DNA of 64,000 bases from Thermoanaerobaculia bacterium. Lineage in GTDB: Bacteria > Acidobacteriota > Thermoanaerobaculia > Gp7-AA8. The notes below the pieces were generated by a model. The model worked only from the letters and a program-made list of their open reading frames with translations. It made no database searches and had not been told where the DNA came from. The stretch is taken from positions 58,936 through 122,935 of the forward strand of contig JAXDGW010000010.1 of NCBI GenBank assembly GCA_034664845.1, read 5' to 3'. A program made the position numbers and the translations under genes. Shown one piece after another: positions 21,877-42,552 of the stretch (positions are counted from its first letter, which is position 1; the number at the start of each line of letters is the position of its first letter).

Positions 21877-22499
21877 GAGAGGAACGCCGGAGTCTTATAG
21901 ACCAGGAGTGTGAAATGGAAAGGGAGATAGTCGTGCCGCAACTGTACGAACGGAGTAAGTGTTTTCCCGTGCGCGAACATCTCCTCGGGACTGAAGTAGT
22001 TCAGACGCGGCTCTTCGTAATTGACATATTTGCTCAGCATGTCGACGGAGACGCAAATCCGCGCTGAGTCGAACGCCGCAGATACCGCCGCTTTGACGAT
22101 GTCGTCGTTCGAGCCTTCGCTGTACCGATTGTTGAACACCTGGCACATGACGATGTAGTCGGCCTCGTGGCCGATGCCGTCACGCGAAACGTCGCGTAGC
22201 TCAAAACGGGCTTGCGGAAACCGCTCTCGGTTTGACTCGATGAACGCGGGAACGAGATCGTAGCCGATGTAGTCGACCTCGCATCCCTGAGCTCTCAGGA
22301 ATTCGTAATAGTGACCAAGACCGCATCCGATATCGAGAACCGTCTTCCCATTCATCGGGCCTGCTGCCGCATGCACAGCGTGCTGAAGACGGTAATGCTC
22401 CTCCCGTCCCGGATTCAGGGAGCGTAAGTCGACACCGAATTCTTCAAAGCGGCGCGTATAACGGCCGACGATCTCTTGTTTGTCCGCGTCGGAAATCAT
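21873..22499 (-). CDS. Class I SAM-dependent methyltransferase
   Basis: KTVLDIGCGLGHYYEFL (motif I) ... DYIVMCQVF. 208 aa. Confidence 0.7.
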   Translation of the reverse strand: MISDADKQEIVGRYTRRFEEFGVDLRSLNPGREEHYRLQHAVHAAAGPMNGKTVLDIGCGLGHYYEFLRAQGCEVDYIGYDLVPAFIESNRERFPQARFELRDVSRDGIGHEADYIVMCQVFNNRYSEGSNDDIVKAAVSAAFDSARICVSVDMLSKYVNYEEPRLNYFSPEEMFAHGKTLTPFVQLRHDYLPFHFTLLVYKTPAFLS

Positions 22500-23698
22500 G
22501 CCACCTCCGCCGGGCGAACGACGTCATACTGGATTCGCGCGTGCGCCTCGCGCGAGATTTGCAGCAATTCCTGATGATCGCGGCCCGTGGCCAGGAGAAA
22601 ACCGGGCCGTTGGCCGCCATTTTGAGCGGCGGAAATCACGTCGCCTGGTTGCACGAAGAAACCGGCATCGACCACACCCGCCAGATCCTTCACTTCGGCG
22701 ATTCCGTCGAGGCGAAGCACAGTTCCTTCGGGCAGCATAAGAAATTCGAGCAGTCCCGCCAATGAGCGTGTGGGCGTGAGATCGACCGCGTCGCCAAGAG
22801 ACTGCCTGATCCGCTGCCCTACCGCGTCAATGCCGGTCATCGCGGGTATGAGCAACGTCGCCACACCGGCGCCGCAACCACGCGCGGCAATCTCGATGAG
22901 CCGCGGCCCGGCCGGCGTAACGATGTACTCAGCATGCGTCATCCCCATTTCGATGCCTACCGCCCGAATGACACGTTCGTTCAAGCGGACCAGTGCGCCG
23001 ATCACTTTGGGATCGAAAGACGCCGGATACAGGAGCCGGATATCGAAGCTGTAGGGAGGCGCGCACTTTACCTTCTCACAGATTCCAAACACCGTCACCG
23101 CACCATTGGAGACGAATGCCTCGATCGACGACTCCGTGCCCGTCATCATCTCTTCCACGAGTACCGAATGATCGGAACTGAACACGCTTGCGGTCTCGAA
23201 CCACGCCACGACATCGTCAGGTGAATGCAGTTTCGCCACACCCCGGCTTGCCTGCGCATCCAGTGGCTTTACGACGACCGGAAATCCGATCTCAGCCGCG
23301 CCGGCTGCCGCTTCTTCCGCCGATCTCGCTCTGATGTATCGCGGCATTGGCAGCCCCGCCTCGCGGCAGCGCTCCCGCATGATGAATTTGTTCGTCGCAG
23401 CGACGGCCGTATGGAGACCGATGCCGGGAAGCCCGAGGTTTTGGGCGATGTGCGCGGCGGTAACTACGGCCACATCCGTTTGCTCCGCGATGACGCCATC
23501 CACACGGTGCTTTCTGGCGATTGTGAGCATGGCATCGCGATCGCGCGTGTCGGCCACTTCGATTTCATCGGCAATCCCCAGAGCGGGAGCATCGGCATTC
23601 TGATCCGTTGCAATGACGTGGAGACCCATCGCCTGCGCAGTACGGATTACAGGGACCTGCCACACACCTGCAGTAAGAACGAGTAGGCGTCGCTTCAT
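22496..23698 (-). CDS. ATP-grasp domain carboxylate-amine ligase
   Basis: PVVVKPLDAQASRGV (ATP-grasp B-loop region) ... EEMMTGTESSIEAF. 400 aa. It is the first gene after a small hairpin downstream of the protease gene. Confidence 0.65.
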   Translation of the reverse strand: MKRRLLVLTAGVWQVPVIRTAQAMGLHVIATDQNADAPALGIADEIEVADTRDRDAMLTIARKHRVDGVIAEQTDVAVVTAAHIAQNLGLPGIGLHTAVAATNKFIMRERCREAGLPMPRYIRARSAEEAAAGAAEIGFPVVVKPLDAQASRGVAKLHSPDDVVAWFETASVFSSDHSVLVEEMMTGTESSIEAFVSNGAVTVFGICEKVKCAPPYSFDIRLLYPASFDPKVIGALVRLNERVIRAVGIEMGMTHAEYIVTPAGPRLIEIAARGCGAGVATLLIPAMTGIDAVGQRIRQSLGDAVDLTPTRSLAGLLEFLMLPEGTVLRLDGIAEVKDLAGVVDAGFFVQPGDVISAAQNGGQRPGFLLATGRDHQELLQISREAHARIQYDVVRPAEVA

Positions 23699-23740: not shown

Positions 23741-26245
23741 TTAACGGCCGCGCGGGATGACCGGGTTAAACGTTGGCGTCGTGGTGGTGAGATTGGCCGT
23801 GGTGACGACGCTGAAGCCGTTCATGAGCCAGACCACGTTCGCACCGGTCGCTGGGTTGTGCCAGAGAATGTCGCCAGTGCCATTGCCGTTGAAATCGCCC
23901 GCCCCGCCGAAACGGAACGCGCTGTTCATGGTCTGGATGAACGAGCCCGCGGCAGCTGTAGCACCGTTCATCAGCCACATGACACTCTGCCCGGTGGCAT
24001 CGTTGTGCCATAACAGATCTGCCTGACCATCGTTGTTGAAGTCGACCGCCGCGGCGAGGTTGTACGCGGGATCGACCGAGTTGATCTGTCCTCCGCCGTT
24101 GAGCGAAAAACCATTCATGAGCCACATGTAGTTCGCGCCGGTGGCTGGGTCGCGCCAGAGAAGGTCGCCTTTGCCATCTCCATTAAAATCGGCGGCACCG
24201 GCAAGACGTACATTCGCAGTCGTCGTTTGTATGAAACTACCTGCCGCAACCGTGACGCCGTTCATCAGCCACATCACGTTCTGGCCGGTGGCATCGTTGT
24301 GCCACAAGATGTCCGCTTTGCCGTCGCCGTTGAAGTCGATCGCTGCGGCGAGATTGTAGGCGGCGTCGAACGTCTGGATTTGACCACCGCCGATGACGTT
24401 GAATCCGTTCATCAGCCACATGTAGTTGACGCCGGTCGCCGGATCGCGCCACAGAAGGTCGGTCCGGCCATCGCCATTGAAATCGGCAGCCGCGCCGAGC
24501 CGGACGTTCGTCGTCGCGTTGGAGATGAACGCGCCTGACTTCGTTGTGGTTCCGTTCATCAGCCACACCACGTTCTGACCGGTGGCGTCGTTGCGCCACA
24601 TGATGTCGTCGATGCCGTCGCCATCGAGATCCCAACGCGCCCGCCGCACCGGGTTCACGGTTACCGTACCAGTTGGACTATCGGCAAACCCGCAACTATT
24701 CGTTACACGCACCCAGTAGCTTGTCGTGCTGGAGGGCGACACTGTGACAGACGCAGCGGTTTGGCCCTGCATCGGAGAAGACGTATTGCCGCTCGTTCCC
24801 ACATACCACTGATACGACAATGGCGCGGTACCGCTTGCGGTGACGCTGAGCGTGGCCGAACCTCCCGCGGTAATCGTTTGTGATGCCGGTCCGGATTGGA
24901 TCGACGGCGGAGTACACGTTGAACAACTACCGCCGGGATAAACGGCGGCGGCGGCGTGCTGGTCCCACGCCTGCAGCGCTGCGTTGAGACCGTGCGTAAC
25001 ACTTGCTGTCATGACCGCGGAGGAAGAACACTCCAGCGATGGATCGCTCGAGCACGGCACGTTCGGATTGTCCGCGCGGGTCTGGTCGGAGTGGCGGAAC
25101 CCGAGTGTATGGCCGAGCTCATGGGCGATCGCGGTCGGCCAATCGCCACTGTTCAGGAGCAGAGAACAATTCGCGATCCCGCGGTTCATCTCCACGTCGC
25201 CTTCGGAGGTGCTGAAGAACGTCTCGGTGCCGAGCGAGTTTGTGCCGATCGTCTCCGTGACGCCACCGACGCCGAGAGTGCCCGCATATGAGTTGCTCGA
25301 GCAGGTAAACGGCGGAGCACCATAGGCGGATAAATCGCGCTCGAACAACACGGTATTTGCACTGTCAGGACCAGCGAGTCCGGTTGTGTGTGTCGTGTCG
25401 GTGCCCCCATAGGCATAGTTGATTTGGGACGGACAATCATTGGTCCAGGTGGCGAGCCCGGTCTGTACAGCGGGAAAACCATTGCCCGGCGCGCCCGGCT
25501 CACCATTGGCGTTCGCGTAGAACACTACCGGACTCGGGAAAACGGCCCAGCGAGCGCCACGCCCGCTTCCGACTGTGTACGAGGTGGCGGAAAACGTGGC
25601 CAGCGTGATGAGGGCCGGCGGCGAGCTCATCGTGCCCATCGCCCGTCGCTGACCACTTGACTCACTCATCGCGAGCGGCTGGCTGTCAATCACGTAATCC
25701 TGGCGCGCCGGTCCTCCGTGAGCTTCCGCACGCACAAAGTTCAGGAACTCGGTGGCCGCCCGGCGCAGCTCACGGTGCGACGCGCCACTGGGATCCCATC
25801 CGACGATGTCGGCCTCATCCCGAACGGCGATCGCCCGCCCGCGCACATCTTCTGTGAGGCGGAACTTGCCGAGCACGAGGTCAGTAACGGCCCACGATCG
25901 CTGTGGTGTCATTGTAAGAAAAAGAAGCACGCGGTCACCAACAGCGAAGGAAGGAGCGCCGGGGACGAATGTGGCGCGTCCATCGTAGACGCCACCGGGC
26001 TCATGCACTTCGAAAACAGCGCCCGGATCTCCTTTGATGGTTTCCTCGGATGCCATGACGGTCACCGTTTCGATTCCGCCATGCGTGTTGAGCTGAACGT
26101 ATGAGCTTGTTGCGTTCGCTACTACGATCGCGTCGGCGCGCCTGACCATGTCACGATCGGGAGGCACGATGAACGTCGCGGCGTGGACGATGGTGGCAAC
26201 AAACAGGAGAGAGGGGGCGGCGAGAGCTAGAGTTCTGGGCTTCAT
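23741..26245 (-). CDS. Secreted metzincin-type zinc metalloprotease with Ig-like domain and about 8 C-terminal FG-GAP/beta-propeller repeats
   Basis: Signal peptide MKPRTLALAAPSLLFVATIVHAATF. HELGHTLGFRHSD matches HExxHxxGxxH, followed by a Met-turn candidate (AVMTA). C-terminal repeats DFNGDGKADILWHNDATGQNVMWLMNG, about 46 aa each, give nucleotide-level tandem repeats at 23760-24660. Confidence 0.6.
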   Translation of the reverse strand: MKPRTLALAAPSLLFVATIVHAATFIVPPDRDMVRRADAIVVANATSSYVQLNTHGGIETVTVMASEETIKGDPGAVFEVHEPGGVYDGRATFVPGAPSFAVGDRVLLFLTMTPQRSWAVTDLVLGKFRLTEDVRGRAIAVRDEADIVGWDPSGASHRELRRAATEFLNFVRAEAHGGPARQDYVIDSQPLAMSESSGQRRAMGTMSSPPALITLATFSATSYTVGSGRGARWAVFPSPVVFYANANGEPGAPGNGFPAVQTGLATWTNDCPSQINYAYGGTDTTHTTGLAGPDSANTVLFERDLSAYGAPPFTCSSNSYAGTLGVGGVTETIGTNSLGTETFFSTSEGDVEMNRGIANCSLLLNSGDWPTAIAHELGHTLGFRHSDQTRADNPNVPCSSDPSLECSSSAVMTASVTHGLNAALQAWDQHAAAAVYPGGSCSTCTPPSIQSGPASQTITAGGSATLSVTASGTAPLSYQWYVGTSGNTSSPMQGQTAASVTVSPSSTTSYWVRVTNSCGFADSPTGTVTVNPVRRARWDLDGDGIDDIMWRNDATGQNVVWLMNGTTTKSGAFISNATTNVRLGAAADFNGDGRTDLLWRDPATGVNYMWLMNGFNVIGGGQIQTFDAAYNLAAAIDFNGDGKADILWHNDATGQNVMWLMNGVTVAAGSFIQTTTANVRLAGAADFNGDGKGDLLWRDPATGANYMWLMNGFSLNGGGQINSVDPAYNLAAAVDFNNDGQADLLWHNDATGQSVMWLMNGATAAAGSFIQTMNSAFRFGGAGDFNGNGTGDILWHNPATGANVVWLMNGFSVVTTANLTTTTPTFNPVIPRGR

Positions 26246-26382
26246 GGCGGGTCCGGAGAGTGATCGCCGGAGTACCAATGCGAAAGATCTGCCTGTCAAC
26301 CGCCTCGCTCTTCAGTATAGCGGCCTCGGCCACAGCGAAGGCTGATGGGCCCGCCCAGTTCCGCTCGTTACACCTCGTACCG

Positions 26383-26967
26383 TCACTCATTGAGCTGATA
26401 ATCGGGATACGCGCCGTCACGCCGCGAAAGGATCGGATCAGTCAGAGGCCACTGAATTCCGAACGCCGGATCGTCCCACCGAATCCCTCGGCTTGCCTCT
26501 GCTACAAAACGCGCTGACATTTCGTAATAAACGTCGGATTCGTCGGCCAAGGTCTGGAACCCGTGAGCAAAATCCTTGGGAGCGTATACCGCGCGCCGGT
26601 TTTCAGCCGTGAGCTCGACGGCGGCCCAATGGCGATACGTCGAGGAATCGCGGCGCAAATCGACGATGACGTCGAGTATCGCACCGCGGACACAGCGAAC
26701 GATCTTCGCTTCCTGATGCGGCGCCGCCTGATAGTGCATCCCTCGCAGTGTCCCCTTTTTCCTGTTGTGCGAGATGTTGCACTGTGCAATGCAAGGCTCG
26801 AGGCCGAGCTCGAGAAACTCCTCCGCACAGAAGGTGCGGGCGAAGAATCCACGATCGTCTGCAATGGGCTCGATATCAATCACGTACGCACCGGCCAGTG
26901 GGAGAGCGGCGAACCTCAATGCAGAACCTCGACCTCTGGAATGAGAACGGCGAACCGCCCTCCCCAC
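26383..26967 (-). CDS. rfbC: NDP-4-keto-6-deoxyhexose 3,5-epimerase (RmlC/RfbC cupin family)
   Basis: AYVIDIEPIADDRGFFARTF...RGMHYQ...KIVRCVRGAILDVIVDLR (RmlC His/Tyr catalytic region). A possible TTG start at 26919 forms a TTGA overlap. Confidence 0.75.
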   Translation of the reverse strand: MGRAVRRSHSRGRGSALRFAALPLAGAYVIDIEPIADDRGFFARTFCAEEFLELGLEPCIAQCNISHNRKKGTLRGMHYQAAPHQEAKIVRCVRGAILDVIVDLRRDSSTYRHWAAVELTAENRRAVYAPKDFAHGFQTLADESDVYYEMSARFVAEASRGIRWDDPAFGIQWPLTDPILSRRDGAYPDYQLNE

Positions 26968-28142
26968 TCACGGATGTGGGCCATCTGTCTCACGATCTCG
27001 TCGCGAAGATTCCACGGAAGTATCAAAACGTAATCCGGGCGCGTCTCGGTGATCCTCTCCGGATCATGGATGGGAATGTGCGTCCCGGGGAGAAAAAGAC
27101 CTTGTTTGTGAGGGCTGCGGTCGACTGTGTATTCGACAAGATCGGCGCGAATGCCACAGTAGTTGAGGAGCGTATTGCCCTTGGCTGGTGCACCATAGCC
27201 AACCACATGCTTTCCCTCTTCCCGGGCGCCGATAAGGAACTTGAGGATGGTGCGTTTCAGTTGGCTGACCCGATCGCCGAAAGTCGTGTACGTCGCAAGC
27301 CGGTCGAGCCCAAACTCGCGCTCCCGACGCTCCAAATCGGCCACGGCCGGGGAGGCGGGAGCCTCTCCCTTGTGCATTGCATAGATACGAAGTGAGCCGC
27401 CATGCGTCGGCAACTCGTCGACGTCGACGATCTCAAGGCCGTGCGCGCTGAAGATCTGCCGCGCCGTGAGCAGCGAAAGATAAGAGAAATGCTCGTGATA
27501 GATCGTATCGAACTGGTTTCCGATCATCAGTCGCATGAGATGCGGAAACTCCATTGTGACCGTGCCGCCGGGCTTCAGCGCGGTCTGTAATCCCTGAACG
27601 AAGTCGTTGATGTCCGGCACGTGTGCCAAGACGTTGTTGCCGAGGAGGAGATCGGCCTTGCGGCCTTCCGCGGCCAGTTCGGAGGCCGTGTTCTGGCCAA
27701 AGAACCGAACCAGTGTGTCGATTCCCTTCTCGCGCGCCACATCGGCGACATTTGCCGCCGGCTCGATACCAAGGACAGGAATCTGCGCCTGCCGAAAGTA
27801 TTGCAGGAGGTAGCCGTCGTTGCTGGCGATCTCAATCACCTGAGACTCCCGACTAAGACCGAGGCGGACAATCATTGCTTCGCAATACCTTCTCGCGTGA
27901 TCCAGCCAGCTCTCGGAGTATGACGAGAAGTAGGCGTAATCGCTGAAGATGTTCTCCGGAGTCTGCACGGCGGGCAGCTGAACGAGAAAACAGCGTTCGC
28001 ACACATAGACGGTCAGCGGATAGAAAGGCTCCATCCGATCGAGCTGGTTGGCGCGCACATACGCATTCGACAAGGGCGACATCCCCAGGTCGGCAAAAAT
28101 ATGGACGAGCGGCTCATCGCAGAACCGGCAGGACAACGACAT
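26916..28142 (-). CDS. NDP-hexose C-methyltransferase (TylCIII/TcaB9-like: N-terminal Zn-ribbon + class I MTase + C-methyltransferase C-terminal domain)
   Basis: MSLSCRFCDEPLVHIFADLGMSPLSNAYV (Cys-rich zinc-binding N-domain), VIEIASNDGYLL (motif I) and a C-terminal domain. The start at 28140-28142 overlaps rfbG's TAA (TAATG). Confidence 0.65.
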   Translation of the reverse strand: MSLSCRFCDEPLVHIFADLGMSPLSNAYVRANQLDRMEPFYPLTVYVCERCFLVQLPAVQTPENIFSDYAYFSSYSESWLDHARRYCEAMIVRLGLSRESQVIEIASNDGYLLQYFRQAQIPVLGIEPAANVADVAREKGIDTLVRFFGQNTASELAAEGRKADLLLGNNVLAHVPDINDFVQGLQTALKPGGTVTMEFPHLMRLMIGNQFDTIYHEHFSYLSLLTARQIFSAHGLEIVDVDELPTHGGSLRIYAMHKGEAPASPAVADLERREREFGLDRLATYTTFGDRVSQLKRTILKFLIGAREEGKHVVGYGAPAKGNTLLNYCGIRADLVEYTVDRSPHKQGLFLPGTHIPIHDPERITETRPDYVLILPWNLRDEIVRQMAHIREWGGRFAVLIPEVEVLH

Positions 28143-29197
28143 TACTGACTGCCCTCGAAGCGTTCGATCTGCTGGTCCATTAGAGCGGCGGCGGAGCTGC
28201 CACCCAACAATCCCCCATAAAACTCGACGAGCCAATCGACTGCGGTTTCGAGCGGAACGCGCGGCCGCCAGCCGAGGAGTGCCCGCGAACGGGTGCTGTC
28301 GAGTTTGAGCGTAACGGCTTCCGGCACGTGAGCTTCTGAATCGCGCGTCCAGGCCGCGTCGTTGCCCCAGGCACCCAAGAGGCGATCGGCGATCCACTCG
28401 ACGGAATGCGCATCGCCCTCGTTCGGCCCGAAGTTCCAGGCGCCCGCCTCCGCGGTGCCGCTCCAGAGCGCTTCGGCGAGAACGAGGTACCCGTTGAGGG
28501 CATCGAGCACGAATTGCCATGGCCGGATCGCGGCAGGATTGCGGATCTGGGCCGGCGAGCCTGACGAGAAGGCGCGAATCAGATCGGGCACCAGACGGTC
28601 CTGCGCCCAATCACCGCCGCCGACAATGTTGCCGGCGCGGGCAGTCGCCACGCGGGGCGCGTTCCCGCTCTGAAAGAACGAGCTCCGATACGCTGCCGTG
28701 ACGAGTTCTGCACACGCCTTGCTGTTGGAGTAGGGGTCCTTGCCACCCATCGGCTCGTTTTCGCGGTACGGCCAGAGCCATTCGCGATTCTCGTAGCACT
28801 TGTCGCTGGTGACGACGACGACCACACGCACCGCGGGGCAGCGGCGAACTGCGTCGAGCAGGTGAACGGTGCCCATGACGTTGGTCGAGTACGTTCCAAC
28901 AGGATCGTCGTAGGACGCGCGGACGATCGGCTGCGCGGCGAGGTGCAGGACAACCTCGGGGTTCGCTGCCGTCATCGCCCGCTCGACAGCGGCGAGATCG
29001 CGGATGTCTGCGATGACTGATTCGATCCCGGCGCCGATCGTTGCTTCTTCGTAGAGGTTTGGCTTCGTCGGGGGATTGAGAGCGAAGCCGGTCACTGTCG
29101 CACCCGCCCGCTTGAGCCAATGTGTAAGCCACGCGCCTTTGAATCCGGTATGCCCGGTGAGGAACACGCGCCGGCCGCGCCAGAGGTCGGGCGTCAT
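28142..29197 (-). CDS. rfbG: CDP-glucose 4,6-dehydratase
   Basis: RVFLTGHTGFKGAWLTHWL...TSDKCYEN. Length and motifs match RfbG. It begins at MTPDLW within the longer ORF 28142..29431. Confidence 0.8.
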   Translation of the reverse strand: MTPDLWRGRRVFLTGHTGFKGAWLTHWLKRAGATVTGFALNPPTKPNLYEEATIGAGIESVIADIRDLAAVERAMTAANPEVVLHLAAQPIVRASYDDPVGTYSTNVMGTVHLLDAVRRCPAVRVVVVVTSDKCYENREWLWPYRENEPMGGKDPYSNSKACAELVTAAYRSSFFQSGNAPRVATARAGNIVGGGDWAQDRLVPDLIRAFSSGSPAQIRNPAAIRPWQFVLDALNGYLVLAEALWSGTAEAGAWNFGPNEGDAHSVEWIADRLLGAWGNDAAWTRDSEAHVPEAVTLKLDSTRSRALLGWRPRVPLETAVDWLVEFYGGLLGGSSAAALMDQQIERFEGSQ

Positions 29198-29201
29198 GAC
29201 G

Positions 29202-29969
29202 TCACCATACTTTCCAGGGCGCCTTCCCCGTTCCCCAGAGTGCATCGAGGAGGGTCTTGTCGCGAAGCGTGTCCATCGGCTGCCAGAAGCCGTCATGTTT
29301 GTACGCCGAGAGGTGTCCGTCGCGCGCAAGCGTCTCGAGCGGCTCGCGCTCCCAAATCGTCTCATCGCCGCCGAGGTAATCGAATACCTGCGGCTCGAGT
29401 ACGAAGAACCCGCCGTTAACCCAGCTGCCATCGCCGGGAGGCTTTTCGGCGAACGTCCGGATCTTCTCCGCCTCGATATCGATCACGCCGAAACGGCCGG
29501 GTGGCTGAACCGCCGTCAACGTCGCAAAGGTCTTTTGCTCGCGGTGAAAATCGATCAGCTTCGCGATGTTGACGTCGGCCAGCCCGTCGCCATACGTGAA
29601 ACAGAACGTCTCTCCATCGACGTGGTGCCGGACGCGTCCGAGGCGGCCACCGGTCTGGGTGTCCTGGCCGGTGTCGACCAGCGTGACCGTCCATGGTTCG
29701 GATGTGCTGTGATGCACGGAAACTTCATTGCTGCGCAGATTGATCGTCACGTCGGACATGTGCAGAAAGTAGTTCGCGAAGTACTCCTTGATCATGTAAC
29801 CCTTGTATCCAAGGCAGATCACGAAGTCGTTGATCCCATGCGCCGAGTACAACTTCATGATGTGCCAGAGGACGGGCATTCCTCCCAGCTCGACCATCGG
29901 CTTCGGACGAATGACTGTTTCTTCGCTGAGTCGCGTGCCGAGTCCACCGGCGAGAATGACGGCTTTCAT
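29202..29969 (-). CDS. rfbF: Glucose-1-phosphate cytidylyltransferase
   Basis: [75 protein letters not shown] is nearly collinear with enterobacterial RfbF. ATGA overlap with fcl. Confidence 0.85.
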   Translation of the reverse strand: MKAVILAGGLGTRLSEETVIRPKPMVELGGMPVLWHIMKLYSAHGINDFVICLGYKGYMIKEYFANYFLHMSDVTINLRSNEVSVHHSTSEPWTVTLVDTGQDTQTGGRLGRVRHHVDGETFCFTYGDGLADVNIAKLIDFHREQKTFATLTAVQPPGRFGVIDIEAEKIRTFAEKPPGDGSWVNGGFFVLEPQVFDYLGGDETIWEREPLETLARDGHLSAYKHDGFWQPMDTLRDKTLLDALWGTGKAPWKVW

Positions 29970-32121: not shown

Positions 32122-32478
32122 TCAGGCGGACCGGTCCGGCGTGATCACCAAACGGCGCACCTCTTCGGAAAGGTGCGTGATCTCCTCCGCCAGCCGATCG
32201 TATTCATCGCGCTTGCGGCGGAGGAAGGCGCGCGTGACGTCGATCTTTTCCTCGATTCCGCGAGGTGTGAGGACGTACAGGTACGCCGACTTGTTGTTGC
32301 TGTTGCGGAAGTTCCGAACCTTGACCCACCCCTTCTCGACGAGGGCCTTGAGGCAGTAGTTCGCTTTGCCGATGCTGACGCCGAGCGCCCGCGCCACCTG
32401 ACGTTGGGTGGCAGTGGGATGCTCCTCGATGTAGCTGAGAAGGCGGTAGCGGATCTCATCCGTCGGGTCGTAGGTCAT
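32122..32478 (-). CDS. EPS-associated MarR-family winged-helix transcriptional regulator
   Basis: 118 aa. RYRLLSYIEEHPTATQRQVARALGVSIGKANYCLKALVEKGWVKV...YLYVLTPRG matches the small MarR-type regulators found in exosortase/PEP-CTERM EPS loci. Confidence 0.65.
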   Translation of the reverse strand: MTYDPTDEIRYRLLSYIEEHPTATQRQVARALGVSIGKANYCLKALVEKGWVKVRNFRNSNNKSAYLYVLTPRGIEEKIDVTRAFLRRKRDEYDRLAEEITHLSEEVRRLVITPDRSA

Positions 32479-32545
32479 CGGTCGTGTTCAACTGTTGAAC
32501 GCACCACGATTTAACCATTACGCTCCGCCGAAAGCAACGCCACGG

Positions 32546-33127
32546 TCACCGCTTTGCGCGGCGAAGAACCGGCCGCTCAAACTCGACGGCCAGGTTCTTC
32601 CGCAGCAGAGAAACCGAGACGACGAGGCGATCGCCGCGGGCGCTGCGGACGACCACGCCCGAATAGCCGGAGAACGGACCTTTCATGATCGTGACGACGT
32701 CGTCCGGCAGAAGGTCTTCATAAACCTCGAACGATGCGCCGGCGAGTTGGAGCCGGCGGATCTGCGCGAGCTGTGCGCCGAGCAGGTCCTGATCTTCGAC
32801 CTCGATGATGCGTACCGTCACGCCGCTCCGCAGCGCGACATCACGTCCCCGCGCGTCCCCGCGCAGGAATACGTATCCCGGAAACAGCGGGACGTACGAG
32901 CGAAAACGCCGCGACGATCGTTCCGAGACGTGCTCGACCTGCGGGAGATAAAACGGGATTTGCTGATCGAGCAGGCGGCGAGCCAGGACCTTTTCCTGGC
33001 GGCTCCGCACATGCGTGACGTGCCAGGGGAAGGAATCCGCGGTCAGCGCGAAGAGATCGTCGGGAAAAAGGTCGGCTTCTTTCGGGAGCAGCGGCATGGC
33101 GGCTGCGAACAGCATCACCCCCGGCAC
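32546..33127 (-). CDS. NusG/RfaH-paralogue transcription antiterminator (UpxY/LoaP-like)
   Basis: NGN domain WHVTHVRSRQEKVLARRLLDQQIPFYLP...FPGYVFLRGD and KOW motif GDVVTIMKGPFSGYSGVV. It is the first gene of the minus-strand glycan operon. Confidence 0.7.
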   Translation of the reverse strand: MPGVMLFAAAMPLLPKEADLFPDDLFALTADSFPWHVTHVRSRQEKVLARRLLDQQIPFYLPQVEHVSERSSRRFRSYVPLFPGYVFLRGDARGRDVALRSGVTVRIIEVEDQDLLGAQLAQIRRLQLAGASFEVYEDLLPDDVVTIMKGPFSGYSGVVVRSARGDRLVVSVSLLRKNLAVEFERPVLRRAKR

Positions 33128-33177: not shown

Positions 33178-34800
33178 TTGCGCGCTATGACCGATTCTCA
33201 TCACGCGGAAATTGTTGAAGTCGTCGACCGGCCGGTGTCCATCAGCCATCTCACCCACACGCTGCAGGCGTATGGGCCAGCCATCTTCCTCTCAACCGCC
33301 GCCATCGCCGTTCTCTACCTCATCCTCAGCGTGGCGATTTACGTTCTCTCGCCCACGCAGCGGATCAGCTCGCAGCAGTTCCGCTTGGATTTCGAAGGCG
33401 CCTCGGAAGCGAAGTACCCGAACGGAATCAAGTTCTCGAGTAGCGATATCACCTCGACGCCCATTCTCCTGAAGGTCTTTCAGGACAATCAACTGGACCG
33501 GTTCACGAGCTTTCCGAACTTCAGCCGCTCGCTGGTTGTCCTCGAGTCCAATGCCGACTACGAGCGCCTGGCCGCCGAGTACCAGGCTCGTCTGGCCGAT
33601 CCGAAGCAATCCGCGATCGACCGGGAGCGCGTCTTGCGCGACTGGCAGGCGAAAGCGTCGAGCATCGCCAAGAACGATTTTTCCCTCAACTGGTTCCGCA
33701 CGCGCGACACCGCTGCCGTTCCTGAGAGTGTCGTCAAGAAGGTTCTACTCGATACTCTGAGCTCCTGGGCTCGGTATGCTGCCAACGAGCAGCACGTGCT
33801 CAAGTACCGGCTGACTGTGTTCTCGCCGGAGATGATCGGGTCGGCCGATACCGACAGCGAGCCGATCGTGGCCATTCAGGTCCTCCGCTCGAAGATCTAC
33901 AAGGTTCTGCAGAACATCGATGCACTTCGCGAGGTCCCCGGGTCCGAGCTCGTTCGAGGTCCGGACGGGATGAATCTGGACGAGATCCGGCTTCGCCTGG
34001 AAGAGATCATCCGTTTCCACCTTGACCCGCTCACCGGACGCGTGAGCACGACTGGTCTGATCGCAAACCGGCCGGCCACGCTCCGGTTTCTCGAGAGCCA
34101 GCTCGCCTACGATCAACGCCACATGAAAGCCACGCAGGATTATGCGGACGTGATCCGGCAGTCCTTCGCGGTGTACTCACTCGATCAACGTGGGTTCTCA
34201 CCGGACAGCGTCACCGCGGCCGCGGCGACGGCCGCGGCGCCTCCTAACCAGCAGCACCCGCAGCAGCAACGCTCCGACACGTTGATGCCGCAGATCGGCG
34301 ACTCCTTCCTGGACCGGCTGCTAACCCTGACGTCTCAGTCCAGCGATATTCAATATCGCCAGAAGGTCGCGGACGAGTACCGGCGTGCTTCGGAAGCGGT
34401 CATCCCGGCGCAACAGTCAGTAGCCTACGATCAGGAAGTACTCGTCCAGGTGAGGTCCAGCGCCACCGCACCCATCGCCGGAGAAGCAGACGGCGTACGA
34501 AACGAGATCATCGCGACGAAGAATGAGGTCAAGCAATTGCTCGGCCGCGTCAATCACATTTACGATGCCGTTTCGGCGAATCTCAATCCATCCAAAGAGC
34601 TCTACACGCTCACGGCGCCCTCCGTGGTGCGCACGGAACACTCGCGCAGCCTTTTTCAACTCGCCCTGTATGGCGTAGCGGTGATCGCGCTCTCGCTGAT
34701 CGTCATCATCATTCTCTGTCTTATCCACGCCCGAATCCGCGAGGAAGAGGCGGCCGAGACGCATTCAAGTGAAGCGCTCCGCACCGATGGACAACCCTGA
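33178..34800 (+). CDS. Polysaccharide co-polymerase (PCP/GumC-EpsF-like chain-length determinant) candidate, no kinase domain
   Basis: 540 aa. One TM near residues 33-56, a large soluble domain with coiled-coil-like segments, and a second TM near residues 495-518. This is the classic PCP topology. It is divergent from the operon leader. Confidence 0.4.
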   Translation: MRAMTDSHHAEIVEVVDRPVSISHLTHTLQAYGPAIFLSTAAIAVLYLILSVAIYVLSPTQRISSQQFRLDFEGASEAKYPNGIKFSSSDITSTPILLKVFQDNQLDRFTSFPNFSRSLVVLESNADYERLAAEYQARLADPKQSAIDRERVLRDWQAKASSIAKNDFSLNWFRTRDTAAVPESVVKKVLLDTLSSWARYAANEQHVLKYRLTVFSPEMIGSADTDSEPIVAIQVLRSKIYKVLQNIDALREVPGSELVRGPDGMNLDEIRLRLEEIIRFHLDPLTGRVSTTGLIANRPATLRFLESQLAYDQRHMKATQDYADVIRQSFAVYSLDQRGFSPDSVTAAAATAAAPPNQQHPQQQRSDTLMPQIGDSFLDRLLTLTSQSSDIQYRQKVADEYRRASEAVIPAQQSVAYDQEVLVQVRSSATAPIAGEADGVRNEIIATKNEVKQLLGRVNHIYDAVSANLNPSKELYTLTAPSVVRTEHSRSLFQLALYGVAVIALSLIVIIILCLIHARIREEEAAETHSSEALRTDGQP

Positions 34801-35710
34801 GGAGCAGAGCGGCGGGCGCAAGTTCGCCGCTCTCTTCAAGGAGATCTCCCGCTCCCAGCACGCCGGCAAGTGCGATTCGCACGACCGCGCGGCCCTTGAA
34901 AAATCTCTGGATCTACTGCTGCGGATCGGAAGCGAACTGGGGGTCACGATTGGGCCGGCCAGCCGGGTTCTCGATTTCGGCTGTGGTCTCGGCGAGACGG
35001 TCGAGATCCTGCTTTCGCGGGGCATCGAGGCTTACGGTGTCGACGTCGGCGAGTGGTGGGGAAAGGATTTCGACGCCTATTGGCAAAAGGGTGATCTTCC
35101 TGCCGCCGGCGTTCTGGCACGTTTGCATTCCATCAACGAAGACCGCTATGTGTTGCCCTTTCCGGACGACTCGTTCGATTTGATCATCAGCACCGCTACG
35201 TTCGAGCACGTGTTCAACTACGAAACGGTCTTTCGCGAGATTCACCGCGTGCTCAAGCCGACAGGGATTTCCGTCAACATTTTCCCAGGACGCTGGTCGC
35301 CGGTGGAGCCTCACGTCGGCATTCCGATCATTCCGCTTTGCAAACACAATTGGTGGCTGGCACTCTGGGCTCTGCGACGGGGCACAGGAGTTGGCTGGCG
35401 CGAGCACTACCACTCCTTGCAGGGCACCATGAAACTCACTTGCTATCCGACGCGCAAGCAGGTCCGTCGCTACGCAGCCGCAGCCGGGGCGCATCTCGAA
35501 TTCTGCGAACGGCTCTATGTCGCTCTCTCAGCCTCAAGGCCTAACCGCATCGTGCGAGCGGCGAGCCGCTTCGGTCTGGGAAGGGTTGTTTCCGCCGCCG
35601 TGGAGCGGGTTTGCCAAAGGACGATGGTTCTGCGAAAACGTACCGCGCCGGGGCTCGATTCGCGGGGCGTCGGGAGAGCGTCCGCACAGCACGGAGCGAT
35701 CACGCCCTGA
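34769..35710 (+). CDS. Class I SAM-dependent methyltransferase
   Basis: RVLDFGCGLGETVEIL (motif I) and DLIISTATFEHV. The start may be M7 at 34787. Confidence 0.6.
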   Translation: MKRSAPMDNPEEQSGGRKFAALFKEISRSQHAGKCDSHDRAALEKSLDLLLRIGSELGVTIGPASRVLDFGCGLGETVEILLSRGIEAYGVDVGEWWGKDFDAYWQKGDLPAAGVLARLHSINEDRYVLPFPDDSFDLIISTATFEHVFNYETVFREIHRVLKPTGISVNIFPGRWSPVEPHVGIPIIPLCKHNWWLALWALRRGTGVGWREHYHSLQGTMKLTCYPTRKQVRRYAAAAGAHLEFCERLYVALSASRPNRIVRAASRFGLGRVVSAAVERVCQRTMVLRKRTAPGLDSRGVGRASAQHGAITP

Positions 35711-37037
35711 CCACATCGAGTCCGGCAACGCCGCGCGGGACGATGTTGCGCGTATCGATGGCCAGGCGCACCTTCGCCCAGAGTGACGGATCTCTGAACT
35801 GCGTGTGCGGCGTCGAAACGACGACCGCGTCATATTGACCGATCGCTTCCGCGGTGCAGGGAATCGACCGCAGCCCCACGTCGTGCTTCCGCCCCCGCCG
35901 AGCCTGCGGTACGTAAGGATCACAGTACGCGACCACAGCACCTCGGGCCTGCAGCATCTCGATCAACTCGAACGACGGCGACTCGCGGTCGTCATCGATG
36001 TCGGGCTTGTACGAGAGCCCCATCACCAGCACCGTCGCGCCGACGATGCTCTTGCCGTGTTTGTTCACCGCCTCGACCGTGCGGTCGACGACGTAGCGCG
36101 GCATCGAGGCATTGACCTCGCCTGCCAGTTCGATGAAACGGGCCCACGTCCCATACTCGGCGGCCTTCCACGTGAGGTAAAACGGATCGAGTGGAATGCA
36201 GTGCCCGCCCAGACCAGGGCCCGGATAGAACGGCATGAAGCCGAACGGTTTCGTCTTTGCTGCCTCGATGACTTCCCACACGTCGATGCCCATCCGCTCA
36301 AAGACAACCTTCATTTCGTTCACGAGAGCGATGTTCACGGCGCGAAAAATGTTCTCGAGGAGCTTGGCGGACTCCGCGACCTCCGTCGAGGAAACAGGAA
36401 CGACGCGATCGACGACGGCGCTATAGAGCTCCGTGGCTGCGCGAAGGGAGGGAGCGTCGATCCCGCCGACGACTTTCGGGATGTTCCGCGTGTTGAAGCG
36501 CTCGTTCCCGGGATCTTCGCGCTCGGGAGAGAAGCCGACAAAGTAGTCGCGGCCGCAGACAAGGCCACGCGCCTCAAAGCGCGACAGAAGCTCCTCGCGC
36601 GTCGTACCGGGGTAGGTGGTCGATTCGAGTACGACGATCTGCCCCGGCCGCAGGCGCCGCGCGATCTCTTCCGCCGTAATGCGGATGTACCGCAGATCGG
36701 GCTCGCGGTGCGTACCCAGTGGCGTCGGTACGCAGATGAGGATCGCGTCACAGTCGGCGAGGCGGTCGAAGTCGGCCGTGGCAAAGACCTTCTCGTTGCC
36801 AAACGCTTTGGCGATTCGTTCCCGGCCGATGTGCCGGATGTAGGTCTCGCCCGCGTTGAGCATCCCGGTCTTCGTCGTATCGACGTCGAAGCCCGTCACC
36901 GGGAAGCCGGCCTCCTCGAAAAGGAGAACGAGCGGAAGTCCGACGTAGCCGAGGCCGATCACGCCGATGCGAGCGGAGCGCGCTCGGATCGATTCGATCA
37001 ACGTGTCGATTCTTTGCGGGCCGGATGTCGCGGTCAT
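35700..37037 (-). CDS. UDP-N-acetyl-D-hexosamine 6-dehydrogenase (WecC/WbpA/Cap5O-type nucleotide-sugar dehydrogenase)
   Basis: [18 protein letters not shown] (NAD Rossmann), CVPTPL and [12 protein letters not shown] (catalytic Cys). The start at MTATSG gives an ATGA overlap with the epimerase gene. Confidence 0.8.
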
Positions 37038-38044
37038 CGGTCGATTCCGTAGTAGGCACGATACCAATCGACGAACCGGGCGATCCCGTCACGAATCGTC
37101 GTCGATGGACGAAACCCGACCGCGGACTCCAGCTCGGAGACGTCGGCCATCGTCGACGGCACATCACCCGGCTGCATGGGCAGCAGCTCCATCGTTGCCT
37201 TGCGTCCCAATGCTTCCTCCAGCGCGGCAATGAAGTCGAGCAGCGGAACGGGCTGGTTGTTGCCGATATTGAAGATGCGGTATGGCGCAAAGCTTCTTGC
37301 CGGATCGGGAGCGTCGCCGCTCCAGGCCGGAGCCGGTACGGCCACGGAATCGATCACCCGGATGACGCCTTCGACGATGTCATCGATGTAGGTGAAGTCG
37401 CGAATCATCCGGCCGTAGTTGTAGACCTCGATCGGCTCACCGTTGAGTATCCCCTTCGTGAATTTGAATAGCGCCATGTCGGGCCTGCCCCACGGGCCGT
37501 AAACGGTAAAGAAACGCAATCCGGTGCACGGAAGGTTGAAGAGAGCCGCGTACGTGTGCGCCATCAGCTCATTGGCTTTCTTCGTAGCCGCGTAAAGGCT
37601 GACCGGATGATCGACGTTGTGATGCTCGGAGAATGGCTGCGCGGTATTCGCGCCGTAGACTGAGCTCGATGACGCGAAGACAAGGTGCTCGATACCGTGA
37701 TGCCGGCTGCCCTCGAGGATGTTCAGGAACCCCTGCACGTTCGCGTCGATGTACGCCTGAGGGTTCACCAGGGAGTAGCGCACGCCCGCTTGAGCGGCCA
37801 GGTTGACGACGCGCTGCGGCTTGATGTCACTGAAGAGCCGGCGCATCCCGTCCGCATCGGCGATATCGAGACGCTCGAAACGAAAGCCGCTCCCGGTCAG
37901 ACGTGCCAACCGCGCTTCTTTCAACTTCGGATCGTAGTAGTCGTTGAGATTGTCGACGCCGATCACCTCGTCGCCACGCGCGAGTAGACGTTGAACGACG
38001 TGGTATCCGATGAAACCGGCCGCGCCGGTGACGAGGGCCTTCAA
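37034..38044 (-). CDS. NAD-dependent nucleotide-sugar 4-epimerase (UDP-glucuronate/UDP-GlcNAcA 4-epimerase, CapI/WbpP-like)
   Basis: [38 protein letters not shown] and SSSSVYG...YAATKKANE (Y-x3-K). Confidence 0.8.
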
Positions 38045-38064
38045 AGCCGGCGCATTCTATCTGC

Positions 38065-39807
38065 TTACTGGAGGTAGCCGAGCGATTTCAACTTCTCGAT
38101 CGTCTCGCGGTCCAGTCTTCGGGTCATGGCGTCTCGAACCTCCGCCGGCGACCCTTTCAGGTTGGACATGAAGAGTCCGAAGTACGGATCGGCGTCGCGC
38201 GCACGATCGAGCATCCCGGCTGCAAGTGCACGTTTCCTGGATCGAATCGCGAGAAGGTCAACCTGTTCAGCGCGATCCGCACGGACATCGTAGAGTCGCA
38301 CCGGAGACCCGGCAAGCACCCTGCTGACTCTGTTCCCGAAATGCAGCAACTTGTAGATGCCATCCGGCGTCAGCTCGATCCGTCCCCAGTAAAAGACCCC
38401 CAGCCGCTCGAGATCTTCGACATCTTTTTTCAGTACGGCCCCTCGATCATCCTTTTGACTGGCCAGTAATTGATGGACGGCATCCGTGTACGTGAGCGCG
38501 GAGACCGAACTTACCTGCATCGATTTTCGCTTCGTCACGGCGAACATGTTCATCGAGTCGGAAGCAGGGCCGGTTCCGAAGTCTTCGCCGAGAAGATAGC
38601 CAAGAGTCCTCACGAAATCGGCATGACTGACGAGGCGGTCGGCGACACGCCCCGGCAGGATCGCTCCGTTTTCTGTGTAGTAGAGCAGCGGTACATGCAG
38701 CGTCGATTCGAACGGACTGGGCCAGTGCTCGCCGTGGAAGCCGTGATCGTAAGACTCGCCATGGTCGGCCGTGATGACGAAGAGCGTTTTCTTCGTCAGT
38801 CCGCGTGCTTTGAAATCGTCAAAGAGCTGCTTGAGCGCGGCGTCCGCCTCGCTGAGATTGGCGTCGTAGTAAGCGAATTGGTTGGCGCGGAATGCACCTG
38901 AATCGACGGCACCCAACGCCAGTTGTTCCTCCGTGGGGCCCTTCGGGGCTTTACCCGCCGGCAGCGTTTTCGAATGCCGGCGGAGAAACTCTTCGGCGAT
39001 GGGAGTCACCGGCGCGTGCCCTCCCTTCAGGTGAATCATCGCGAAGAACGGCTTGCCGGAGGAGAGCAGCGGCAGACAATGCTCCCTGAATTGCTGGTAC
39101 GAAACGCGATTCGAGCTCCACGGCCGCGTTGCCGCGTCGGGACCAACCGGGTATTCGAAGTGATCGAATCCCCGCTCCATCTTGTTCAGGTCGTGCAGAA
39201 AGAACGCGACCGTGCTTCCAACGGTCACATATCCCCGCTTTCGCAACTCCTCGGGAAGCCAGAACACGCCCGGGGCAAGCGGCACACCGTTGTAGAGCAC
39301 TCCGTGTTTCGGCGGCACGAGACCCGACAGGAGCGTCGCGTGTGCCGGCGAGGTCGAGCCGGTGATCGTGTACGCGTGCATGACGAGCAGACCCTTGCGC
39401 GCGAGCGAGTCGAAGTAGGGCATCGTGCGCGGCGATCCACCGTATGCGCCGATGCGCGCAGCATCCGTGGCGTCGAGCGTGATGAGAACGACGTTCCACC
39501 CATCGAGGGAGCCGAGGCGCGGAGTTGGGGACGAGGCCGCGGAACCGAGGAGAAGGAGTGCGATGAAGGGAAGTGCGAGTCTTAGAGAGTGAATCCCGCC
39601 TTCCTTCCGTCGTCGTGAAACATCTTCACGGTTTCGAGCGAGTAGTCGTCGAGGTCCTTCCCCATCAGACTCAGCTTCTTGAGAATGTCGTTCGTCACCG
39701 TGATGATGTGACAGCCGATGGCGTCGGCTTGCAGGATGTTGAGCAACTCGCGAGGGCTCGCCCAGATCAGTTCGGCGCTGGGAGCAGCTTTCAGGATGCT
39801 CAGGCAT
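38065..39807 (-). CDS. Alkaline-phosphatase-superfamily 'sulfatase-like' hydrolase/transferase with Thr nucleophile (phospho-substituent transferase candidate)
   Basis: Signal/TM LRLALPFIALLLLGSAASS. The conserved block VVLITLDATDAARIGAYGG...TGSTSPAHATLLSGL has T-S-P-A-H in place of the formylglycine C/S-x-P-x-R motif, as in LtaS/MdoB/EptA-type transferases. The only canonical in-frame start is the ATG at 39807, which forces a 226-bp overlap with the transaldolase gene, so the true start is uncertain. Confidence 0.5.
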   Translation of the reverse strand: MPEHPESCSQRRTDLGEPSRVAQHPASRRHRLSHHHGDERHSQEAESDGEGPRRLLARNREDVSRRRKEGGIHSLRLALPFIALLLLGSAASSPTPRLGSLDGWNVVLITLDATDAARIGAYGGSPRTMPYFDSLARKGLLVMHAYTITGSTSPAHATLLSGLVPPKHGVLYNGVPLAPGVFWLPEELRKRGYVTVGSTVAFFLHDLNKMERGFDHFEYPVGPDAATRPWSSNRVSYQQFREHCLPLLSSGKPFFAMIHLKGGHAPVTPIAEEFLRRHSKTLPAGKAPKGPTEEQLALGAVDSGAFRANQFAYYDANLSEADAALKQLFDDFKARGLTKKTLFVITADHGESYDHGFHGEHWPSPFESTLHVPLLYYTENGAILPGRVADRLVSHADFVRTLGYLLGEDFGTGPASDSMNMFAVTKRKSMQVSSVSALTYTDAVHQLLASQKDDRGAVLKKDVEDLERLGVFYWGRIELTPDGIYKLLHFGNRVSRVLAGSPVRLYDVRADRAEQVDLLAIRSRKRALAAGMLDRARDADPYFGLFMSNLKGSPAEVRDAMTRRLDRETIEKLKSLGYLQ

Positions 39808-41433: not shown

Positions 41434-41449
41434 TGTAGCGGGCTGTCAC

Positions 41450-42430: not shown

Positions 42431-42552
42431 CGCTCTCTCTCCCGATCCCGAACCGCCGTCATCTTCGTCATTCGCACGAGCATACGCAAGCGGCAGGCGT
42501 CCCGTCGGATTATGGCGGTGAAGTCAGTCGGAACTCGCCGTCATAGGGAGAA

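Follow-up and report, generated by a model that had tools for sequence, protein, structure and literature searches.

The gene that we describe here encodes what is predicted to be a Sec-exported zinc endopeptidase of four modules, with a catalytic domain of the matrix-metalloproteinase (MMP) type and, ahead of it, a TIMP/NTR-like OB-fold domain. We postulate that the enzyme is latent as secreted, that a C-terminal propeller docks it as a lectin and that a promoter of its own drives its expression; taken jointly with the enzymatic assignment, these propositions seem to us modestly probable. The wider proposal is more tentative, and we hold it with some doubt: that the protein belongs to a large unannotated bacterial family of matrixin-like enzymes which carry a TIMP/NTR-fold domain in cis, the exposed N-terminus of which would plug the active site, and that in the present case the enzyme is aimed by a lectin.

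Module order and catalytic domain

The gene lies on the minus strand of a 64,000-nucleotide stretch of DNA (the window, meaning the whole of the stretch analysed), from an ATG at 26245 to a stop codon at 23741-23743, and its 834-aa product matches P0001, 'MAG Thermoanaerobaculia bacterium hypothetical protein QOC81_330', at 100% identity. The bearer of the gene is described as a soil bacterium. No paralog was found elsewhere in the window by tblastn. Searches with the window protein returned, in NCBIfam, motif matches only, all of them sub-threshold; in a PDB sequence search with the whole protein, nothing but Ig domains; and in a Foldseek comparison of the full-length model with the PDB, Ig arrays and generic propellers, nothing of which was informative. 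The modules follow one another in the order signal peptide, TIMP/NTR-like OB-fold, MMP-like catalytic domain, Ig-like domain and six-bladed calcium-loop propeller, and the features are placed as follows.

23741..26245, minus strand: whole gene including the stop codon, predicted secreted multidomain metalloprotease (ORF list and translation)
26279..26293, minus strand: candidate −24/−12 (σ54-type) promoter GGCAGATCTTTCGCA, 33-49 nt upstream of the ATG (conserved block and pattern counts)
26180..26245, minus strand: signal peptide, aa 1-22 (MKPRTLALAAPSLLFVATIVHA), with a predicted signal-peptidase I cut after VHA (sequence features)
25661..26179, minus strand: TIMP/NTR-like OB-fold domain, aa 23-195, with mature N-terminus A-T-F-I-V-P-P
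25598..25660, minus strand: variable, predicted-disordered linker, aa 196-216, a candidate activation-cleavage region (pLDDT below 50; column conservation 0.13-0.18)
24926..25597, minus strand: matrixin-like (MMP-fold) zinc endopeptidase catalytic domain, aa 217-440
25091..25123, minus strand: zinc-binding motif HELGHTLGFRH, aa 375-385, followed by Ser386 (invariant key residues)
25010..25012, minus strand: Met412, candidate Met-turn methionine, in the context C406-S-S-S-A410-V-M412 (invariant in 50 sequences)
24656..24925, minus strand: Ig-like domain, aa 441-530 (Pfam Ig_3, E 9e-6; all-beta in the AF2 model)
23744..24655, minus strand: six-bladed FG-GAP/VCBS-type beta-propeller, aa 531-834, of six 49-aa repeats

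The initial annotation had called the same open reading frame, recognised HELGHTLGFRH within it and predicted a signal peptide and an Ig-like module, and in each of these respects it is borne out by the present analysis. The catalytic domain has the metzincin fold, and HELGHTLGFRH is a zinc motif of the metzincin clan. Across 50 aligned sequences H375, E376, G378, H379 and H385 are invariant, as are C406, A410 and M412, the last of which sits 27 residues past His385; HExxHxxGxxH occurs in 220/232 long family members, and in 168 of these 220 the third zinc His is followed by Ser (Ser386 in the window), in 46 by Ala. The Pfam classification suggested at the outset as a check yields a divided answer: the window protein scores 15.5 bits against Peptidase_M10 (PF00413), below the cut-off of 24 and over the motif only, whereas relatives at 25-32% identity exceed that cut-off (L012 50.0, L027 35.9, L021 25.3 and L010 24.5 bits), so that membership of the matrixins is by transitivity only.

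The N-terminal domain as a candidate zinc cap

The most unusual feature of the protein is its ~170-aa TIMP/NTR-like N-terminal domain, which was absent from the initial annotation. It is an OB-fold with NTR topology and, as in TIMP/NTR proteins, it stands at residue 1 of the mature chain with Ser/Thr at position 2. Judged from the sequences compared, the domain always starts at the predicted signal-peptidase site. In the window protein, which reads MKPRTLALAAPSLLFVATIVHA/ATF here, the n-region is basic, the core is hydrophobic (mean Kyte-Doolittle 2.1) and the cleavage motif is VHA; aa 1-22 have an AF2 pLDDT below 50. The N-terminal layout is like the window's in 100/120 homologs, the remainder being truncated or near variants. 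In those 100 an AxA-type site abuts the conserved N-terminal motif with zero spacer, the mature protein starting [A/T/S/V]-[T/S]-[F/Y]-[V/I]-V-P directly after AxA, with Thr at mature position 2 in 85 and Ser in 15. Relatives in other phyla, at 25-32% identity, retain [T/A/M]-[S/T]-[Y/F/V] directly after the Ala that precedes the cut. By eye, the domain begins at residue 18-39 in roughly 142 of the best 150 library matches; there were 3 late-start exceptions, and the two inspected were both mis-called starts. The N-terminal block is the best-conserved stretch of the domain by column conservation, the first ten mature residues have a pLDDT of only about 70, and the AF2 model places residues 25-26 in a beta bridge. 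As a counterpoint to the zinc-capping model set out below, conservation of the N-terminus could merely reflect a structural first strand.

The two-domain AF2 model has a pTM of 0.82 although the linker of ~20 residues is disordered, which argues for a confident, fixed interface between the N-terminal and catalytic domains. In sequence, no match to PF00965 or PF01759 was found by Pfam on aa 23-178 (E up to 10) or on the whole protein, and hhalign of the domain against TIMP-1 to -4 gave a probability of 0.2%, which is not significant. The domain in the window has no cysteines, and thus neither Cys1 nor the three disulfides of a TIMP; no Cys occurs in the protein before aa 271, and 206/232 family members are likewise free of Cys in aa 21-200. 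A cysteine-switch propeptide (PRCGxPD) is not present either, and some other latency device would therefore be needed. Free-standing TIMP-like proteins were considered and rejected as candidates, since the short library matches (160-300 aa) break off within the linker and have the appearance of genes truncated at contig ends, and so provide no evidence for a free form of the domain.

The model that we favour, and which as a whole we would place a little above an even balance of belief, begins with removal of the signal peptide, which would free the N-terminus A-T-F-I-V-P. As in TIMPs, this N-terminus may then occupy the active-site cleft, here the one in the catalytic domain to which it is joined, with its alpha-amino and carbonyl groups capping the zinc, and the enzyme would be secreted in a latent state. 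Activation would need the linker (aa 196-216) to be cut, or the N-terminus to be trimmed or displaced. The C-terminal propeller, as a lectin, would dock the enzyme on a cell-surface glycopolymer, the simplest candidate being the polysaccharide made by the surrounding locus, and proteolysis would be confined in this manner to the glycan layer. A σ54-type promoter of its own, and not read-through from the NusG-headed sugar operon alone, would probably drive expression of the gene. If true, the TIMP-type 'N-terminal wedge' would not be confined to animals: here it would be built into the protease itself to keep the zymogen silent, a mechanism new to metzincins, and it would reflect either an ancient kinship with the TIMP-MMP pair or remarkable convergence. 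The family would then also offer a tractable bacterial model of TIMP-MMP recognition without disulfides, and a data point on the origin of the NTR/TIMP module.

A rather less likely explanation is that the OB-fold domain is no inhibitor and serves as an ordinary prodomain or folding chaperone, or else as an exosite that, in the manner of agrin NtA, PCOLCE NTR and C345C modules, binds a protein or an oligosaccharide as its ligand; the enzyme would then be either active as secreted or kept latent by other means. The missing TIMP Cys1 and disulfides, the lack of significant sequence similarity to TIMPs and the only moderate pLDDT of the N-terminal segment would all suit such a role. However, a plain binding module gives no cause for a fixed register, and the zero-spacer start with Ser/Thr at residue 2, which recurs across thousands of clusters and several phyla, consequently counts against it; the fixed interface with the catalytic domain indicated by the pTM, and a family with no other recognisable latency element, also favour the zinc cap.

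C-terminal modules, glycan locus and candidate promoter

The Ig-like module matches Pfam Ig_3 at E 9e-6, which is under the gathering score, and an Ig chain of CD22 in the PDB at E 4.8e-4. The propeller consists of six four-stranded blades and scores 90.2 bits against FG-GAP_3 (cut-off 26.9) and 89.1 bits against FG-GAP (cut-off 22.1), both at about 1e-25; each repeat holds a D-x-[DN]-x-[DN]-G calcium-loop motif, and the six motifs are spaced at 49 aa. The initial annotation had counted about eight FG-GAP repeats, and exactly six of 49 aa are present; its estimate of some 900 bp of tandem DNA repeats is correct in extent (6 x 147 nt = 882 nt), but the description of these as recombinogenic is weak, as the units are too diverged (in-register nucleotide identity 52-76%, longest exact in-register run 20 nt), and at that identity we reject the array as recombination-prone. 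C-terminal tails vary freely across the family and include propellers, Ig arrays, PKD, fn3, CARDB and dockerin modules. The best structural match to the propeller, at 19% identity, is UmbA4, the targeting lectin of an antibacterial toxin particle, which has six blades with Ca loops and teichuronic acid as its ligand (PMC13274773). From the fold, at that level of identity, and from the genomic context we infer that the propeller is a putative lectin, and on the same grounds its ligand.

That context is a polysaccharide locus. As first annotated, the gene is flanked on the same strand by an RmlC-like gene (26383-26967, minus strand, across a 137-nt gap upstream) and an ATP-grasp gene (22496-23698, minus strand, across a 42-nt gap downstream), and its placement among glycan genes, likewise claimed at the outset, proves to be conserved: 10/11 independent loci (the window and ten relatives) lie inside sugar-nucleotide or polysaccharide clusters, in relatives down to 46% identity. 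The ATP-grasp gene was rejected as a conserved functional partner, as apart from the window it adjoins the protease only in L001 and L002, the closest orthologs, and is not next to it at the remaining loci. Most relatives have, between the protease and the upstream sugar genes, a gene of divergent orientation for a small secreted protein, which we call CPCVP after its TIMP-like C-P-C-V-P motif; one such gene lies at 5495-5917 of L035. This protein has no match in Pfam or, by sequence, in the PDB, and hhalign relates it to the profile of the protease N-terminal domain with a probability of 4.8%, that is, not at all. Neither tblastn nor hmmsearch found a homolog in the window; the gene has been lost there and in the 78%-identical relative, and the protease gene is intact in both.

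The candidate σ54-like element upstream of the protease was recognised by pattern match. GGCAGATCTTTCGCA has GG at −24 and GC at −12 with the canonical spacing, the block GGCA...TTTCGCA is kept in four orthologous intergenic regions that have elsewhere diverged, and GGC-N8-[TC]G[CA]A occurs 30-60 nt before the start in 11/14 family loci, where 0.078 would be expected per 150 nt. The window ORFs that were scanned include no rpoN and no enhancer-binding protein; a σ54 activator adjoins one paralog, in L034. A scan for σ70-type promoters and intrinsic terminators found none flanking the gene, the counts being at or below shuffle expectation, and with no terminator between the gene and its neighbours read-through co-transcription may still occur. 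On the other hand, the −24/−12 element in the 137-nt gap and the divergent gene found there in most relatives make it more likely that the protease heads its own unit, and the initial view that it is probably co-transcribed with the polysaccharide genes has become uncertain.

The same observations could be taken to describe an interbacterial weapon and not a housekeeping enzyme of the cell surface, an explanation that we consider improbable. The propeller, or the Ig array of paralogous subfamilies, would recognise the glycopolymers of competitors as UmbA lectins do, the protease would do the harm, and the small divergent CPCVP protein would be a self-protecting inhibitor. The match to the targeting lectin of a toxin particle, the freely swapped tails and the tight linkage, in most relatives, of a small secreted partner with a TIMP-like motif lend themselves to this account; however, conserved placement in the organism's own polysaccharide locus (10/11 loci, the window included) points to a self glycan, the protease gene is intact in the window and in the 78%-identical relative although both have lost the partner, and features of toxin delivery or of polymorphic toxins were not seen. 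That the protein is an inert adhesin or lectin merely retaining a metzincin-shaped domain is very improbable, although it reaches no Pfam peptidase family threshold and large lectin and Ig portions make up most of its sequence, as pseudo-enzymes usually lose zinc-ligand and catalytic residues and here 50/50 aligned sequences keep the three zinc His, the catalytic Glu and the Met, with the motif present in 220/232.

Comparison with known systems

The predicted latent protease belongs to a family of more than 2000 sequence clusters. With the matrix metalloproteinases (matrixins, MEROPS M10A, PF00413, including the bacterial karilysin) it has in common HExxHxxGxxH followed by Ser, a downstream Met whose A-x-M context recalls ALM, and a final helix ending D...A....YPG that recalls the MMP C-terminal helix. 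In vertebrate MMPs the Met lies about 8 residues past the third His, whereas that of the window lies 27 residues after it, with a two-Cys insert; furthermore, the window protein is without the PRCGxPD cysteine-switch propeptide and the hemopexin domain, and an OB-fold stands where the propeptide would be.

Both TIMPs and the way in which their N-terminus caps the zinc are textbook animal biology, and to our knowledge TIMPs are regarded as metazoan. Like TIMPs and NTR modules (PF00965, PF01759), the window domain begins at the first mature residue; its x-[T/S]-x-[V/I]-(V)-P, which leads into a short helix, resembles the C-[T/S]-C-x-P of TIMPs, and it is likewise physically associated with an MMP-type enzyme. 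In contrast to TIMPs, which are separate inhibitors, it is bacterial, fused in cis and a candidate inhibitor, and it lacks Cys1, disulfides and detectable sequence similarity. The bacterial serralysin inhibitors APRin and SmaPI, whose fold is an eight-stranded barrel, differ from it in fold and in acting in trans and in the periplasm. Their N-terminal residues enter the metzincin cleft and the amine caps the zinc, an arrangement that has been likened to that of TIMP (PMC8235301).

The sole bacterial 'TIMP-like' report that we found concerns a lipoprotein of Listeria monocytogenes, and its authors noted no earlier record (PMC8235301). In that Mtz/Tim system a secreted metzincin is coupled genetically to a protein that is TIMP-like by predicted structure (Phyre2, at 60-90% confidence) and not by sequence; the lipoprotein is separate, encoded downstream and a substrate of the protease (PMC8235301). 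In the window protein, by contrast, the protease chain itself carries the domain at its N-terminal end, and the window family is unrelated and much larger. Finally, the UmbA4 lectin of the Streptomyces umbrella toxin particles (PDB 9oee; PMC13274773), 19% identical to the window propeller, is paired with an inactive trypsin-like domain in a toxin particle, whereas the lectin-like tail described here belongs to a metalloprotease in a polysaccharide locus; the conserved placement and the UmbA-like tail together suggest an unrecognised protein component of the surface-glycan systems of Acidobacteriota.

A divergent matrixin-type metzincin

A single long open reading frame on the minus strand (ATG at 26245, stop at 23741-23743) encodes an 834-aa protein that ends in ...NPVIPRGR and has exactly the sequence of P0001, annotated 'hypothetical protein' in a Thermoanaerobaculia (Acidobacteriota) metagenome-assembled genome. 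It has the signal peptide and the HELGHTLGFRH motif that the initial annotation had described: the N-terminus (MKPRTLALAAPSLLFVATIVHA|ATF) shows the tripartite build of a Sec signal peptide, and the motif is located at residues 375-385. In Pfam, FG-GAP_3 and FG-GAP score well over cut-off and an Ig domain slightly under it; no metallopeptidase family in Pfam or NCBIfam exceeds threshold, the matches being confined to the zinc motif. H375, E376, G378, H379, H385, C406, A410 and M412 are invariant among 50 aligned family members. In genome loci with relatives at 25-32% identity, similarity extends over the N-domain as well as the catalytic domain, and since several of these relatives clear Pfam Peptidase_M10 over the full profile (50.0 bits at L012, 35.9 bits at L027), the protease is, on sequence, a divergent matrixin-type metzincin. 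It is predicted to work like an MMP and is of matrixin lineage by transitivity, though not a recognised Pfam member. As in MMPs, a Ser follows the third His; unlike in MMPs, the Met sits 27 residues downstream of that His, and the cysteine-switch propeptide is absent, its place being taken by an NTR-fold domain.

A TIMP-like N-domain joined to a matrixin domain, the two-domain core, also occurs at 25-32% identity with other C-terminal tails (fn3, PKD, CARDB, dockerin) at L009-L027. These copies, from Holophagales, Nevskiaceae, a betaproteobacterium and Binatia, lie outside sugar loci as judged by the probes used.

Examples of the two-domain core
L012: 9920-11491
L020: 9896-12475
L027: 9788-12115
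L018: 9920-13204

The N-terminal domain as a putative built-in inhibitor

Residues 23-195 have no sequence match in Pfam, NCBIfam or PDB, and in the AlphaFold2 model they form, at high confidence, a beta-barrel with helices, an NTR fold for which meteorin NTR and complement C345C domains serve as comparisons. The mature N-terminus, A-T-F-I-V-P-P, is followed by a short helix and then a long beta-hairpin. TIMP begins C-T-C-V-P-P, a start whose layout matches that of the N-domain. By column conservation, no part of the domain is better conserved than the block [A/T/S/V]-[T/S]-[F/Y]-[V/I]-V-P. In 100 of 120 homologs this block abuts the signal-peptidase site with zero spacer; the remainder are truncated or near variants. 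A phmmer search with the N-domain alone against 1.84 billion cluster representatives matched 2160 clusters with E of at most 1e-3; among the best 150 of these 2160 matches, counted by eye, the domain starts at residue 18-39 in about 142, and of three late-start exceptions both of the two inspected were mis-called starts. The pattern A|[T/A/M]-[S/T]-[Y/F/V] is kept at 25-32% identity in Holophagales, a Nevskiaceae gammaproteobacterium, a betaproteobacterium and Binatia.

The 20-residue linker to the catalytic domain is disordered and unconserved, yet the two-domain model (residues 1-445: pLDDT 82.5) reaches a high pTM of 0.82, which implies a fixed, confident interface between the modelled domains. 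From this interface and the conserved N-terminal register at the signal-peptidase site, we infer that the N-domain may be a built-in TIMP-style inhibitor, in which the newly formed alpha-amino group would cap the zinc until cleavage of the linker or displacement of the N-terminus. Counting against this reading, the first ten mature residues have a pLDDT of only ~70 and the N-domain has no cysteines. Alignment by hhalign with TIMP-1 to -4 (approximate query sequences) was not significant, the best local alignment, itself not significant, falling in the N-terminal register. The in-cis mechanism is tentative, its chance of being real being somewhat short of even.

The polysaccharide locus, the promoter and the propeller

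On the minus strand, the whole stretch ~470-33127 forms one polysaccharide locus, with the protease gene inside it.

Features of the locus
32546-33127, minus: NusG-like protein, first gene
32122-32478, minus: small MarR-like HTH protein, 118 aa, second gene
Between HTH and protease genes, in order: GDP-mannose dehydratase, epimerase, nucleotidyltransferase, SDR, sugar C-methyltransferase, RmlC-like epimerase
26293-26279, upstream of the protease start: candidate σ54-type −24/−12 element (pattern conservation)
After the protease gene, in order: ATP-grasp ligase, methyltransferases, two DegT aminotransferases, HMGL-like enzyme, CmcI methyltransferase
Following these, in order: Wzx-type flippase, several glycosyltransferases, asparagine-synthase-like enzyme

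The NusG-like and HTH pair (32122-33127, minus) also heads loci L002, L003 and L031, and recalls operon-specific antitermination pairs elsewhere (RfaH; UpxY/UpxZ in Bacteroides polysaccharide loci). Divergent from the NusG-like gene, 33178-34800 (plus) encodes a 540-aa protein with a C-terminal hydrophobic segment and no Pfam match, a candidate export or chain-length component; L002 likewise carries near its head, opposite the operon, a 533-aa gene (265-1866) with no Pfam match. The adjacent sugar-gene set (35700-47896: UDP-glucose dehydrogenase, epimerases, sulfatase, SIS and GHMP-kinase heptose-type genes, nucleotidyltransferase) contains a second secreted repeat protein (42553-44364, minus; 603 aa, FG-GAP_2 and DUF11). 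Mechanically called frames for the C-methyltransferase (26916-28610, minus; 564 aa from TTG) and SDR (28142-29431, minus) overlap by ~470 nt; as the C-methyltransferase orthologs in L002 and L035 have 408-409 aa, this enzyme probably begins at an internal codon around 28140.

Of ten independent homolog-encoding loci surveyed, nine (ten of 11 with the window) are within sugar-nucleotide/polysaccharide clusters, which house FG-GAP-tailed homologs at 46-78% identity (P0002, P0003, P0004, P0005, P0021, P0022, P0055) and Ig-tailed ones (P0025, P0067). As a rule, a NusG-like and HTH gene pair, epimerases and UDP-glucose dehydrogenase precede these clusters. Only P0071, of the many-Ig subfamily, departs from this placement; its neighbours are a paralog and an S8 peptidase. 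Three more loci (L006-L008) have a DegT or SDR gene near the homolog, and none of the distant loci L009-L029 does.

The RmlC-like and ATP-grasp genes flank the protease gene on the same strand, as originally noted; the co-transcription proposed from this arrangement fares less simply. A conserved block, GGCA-N7-CGCA, with the spacing of a σ54 −24/−12 element, lies in the short region upstream of the start. Of 14 family loci, 11 carry a relaxed form of this block 30-60 nt before the start codon, against an expectation of 0.078 per 150 nt, so that the protease gene probably has its own regulated promoter. No terminator-like or σ70-like sites were found flanking the gene, and read-through from the sugar genes is possible. 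A σ54-dependent response-regulator/activator gene (L034: 913-2289), ~3 kb upstream of tandem many-Ig protease paralogs, fits the σ54-like element upstream of family members.

The repeats of the propeller number exactly six, of 49 aa apiece and all carrying a D-x-[DN]-x-[DN]-G loop, not the roughly eight FG-GAP repeats first claimed. The corresponding DNA units, spaced 147 nt and also detected as a 294-nt double unit, share 52-76% nucleotide identity in register, with a longest common exact run of 20 nt, and are therefore poor recombination substrates, contrary to the suggestion that they are recombinogenic. The earlier idea of a glycan-guided protease gains fold-level support from UmbA4, a six-bladed beta-propeller lectin with degenerate repeats and conserved Ca-binding loops, whose binding sites for a glycopolymer of the cell surface lie at blade 4 and between blades 5 and 6 (PMC13274773).

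The divergent partner gene and known TIMP-like systems

In nearly all close relatives, a partner gene of 136-154 aa lies immediately upstream of the protease gene on the opposite strand.

Partner genes
L002: 9487-9939, minus
L003: 7413-7847, minus
L004: 7461-7886, minus
L030: 7471-7899, minus
L031: 7512-7955, minus
L032: 6376-6801, minus
L033: 7476-7910, minus
L035: 5495-5917, minus

The partner has a signal peptide, four conserved cysteines and an invariant C-P-C-[V/I]-P (120/120), reminiscent of the TIMP N-terminus C-T-C-V-P-P but sitting 1-8 residues after the likely cleavage site. Pfam and PDB contain no match to it, its profile is unrelated to that of the protease N-domain, and all 181 homologs are annotated 'hypothetical'. 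Possible roles for it are trans-acting inhibitor, immunity protein or substrate. Its absence from the window and from a 78%-identical relative (L036), and its presence in relatives at 74% and 70%, point to recent loss.

A basic C-terminal tail such as PEPRRRAxxH ends 117 of the 120 partner proteins examined (P0264-P0383). This tail, approximately P-[E/x]-P-[K/R]-[R/H]-R-[A/S]-x-x-H with no hydrophobic helix, also ends 42 of 232 protease family members, of the many-Ig subfamily (among them P0010, P0039, P0071, P0079, P0094, P0106, P0115, P0147, P0201 and P0263). It has the look of a C-terminal tag for sorting or anchoring, so far undescribed, similar to PEP-CTERM but without the transmembrane segment; the window protease's own end is at best a degenerate version.

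In the open-access literature we found no bacterial TIMP-like report besides the Listeria Mtz/Tim pair, nor anything closer, and the authors of that work noted no previous record from bacteria (PMC8235301). The TIMP-like member of that pair is a lipoprotein of its own (PMC8235301); here, as modelled, an NTR-fold domain in cis substitutes for the cysteine-switch propeptide of a matrixin-type protease.
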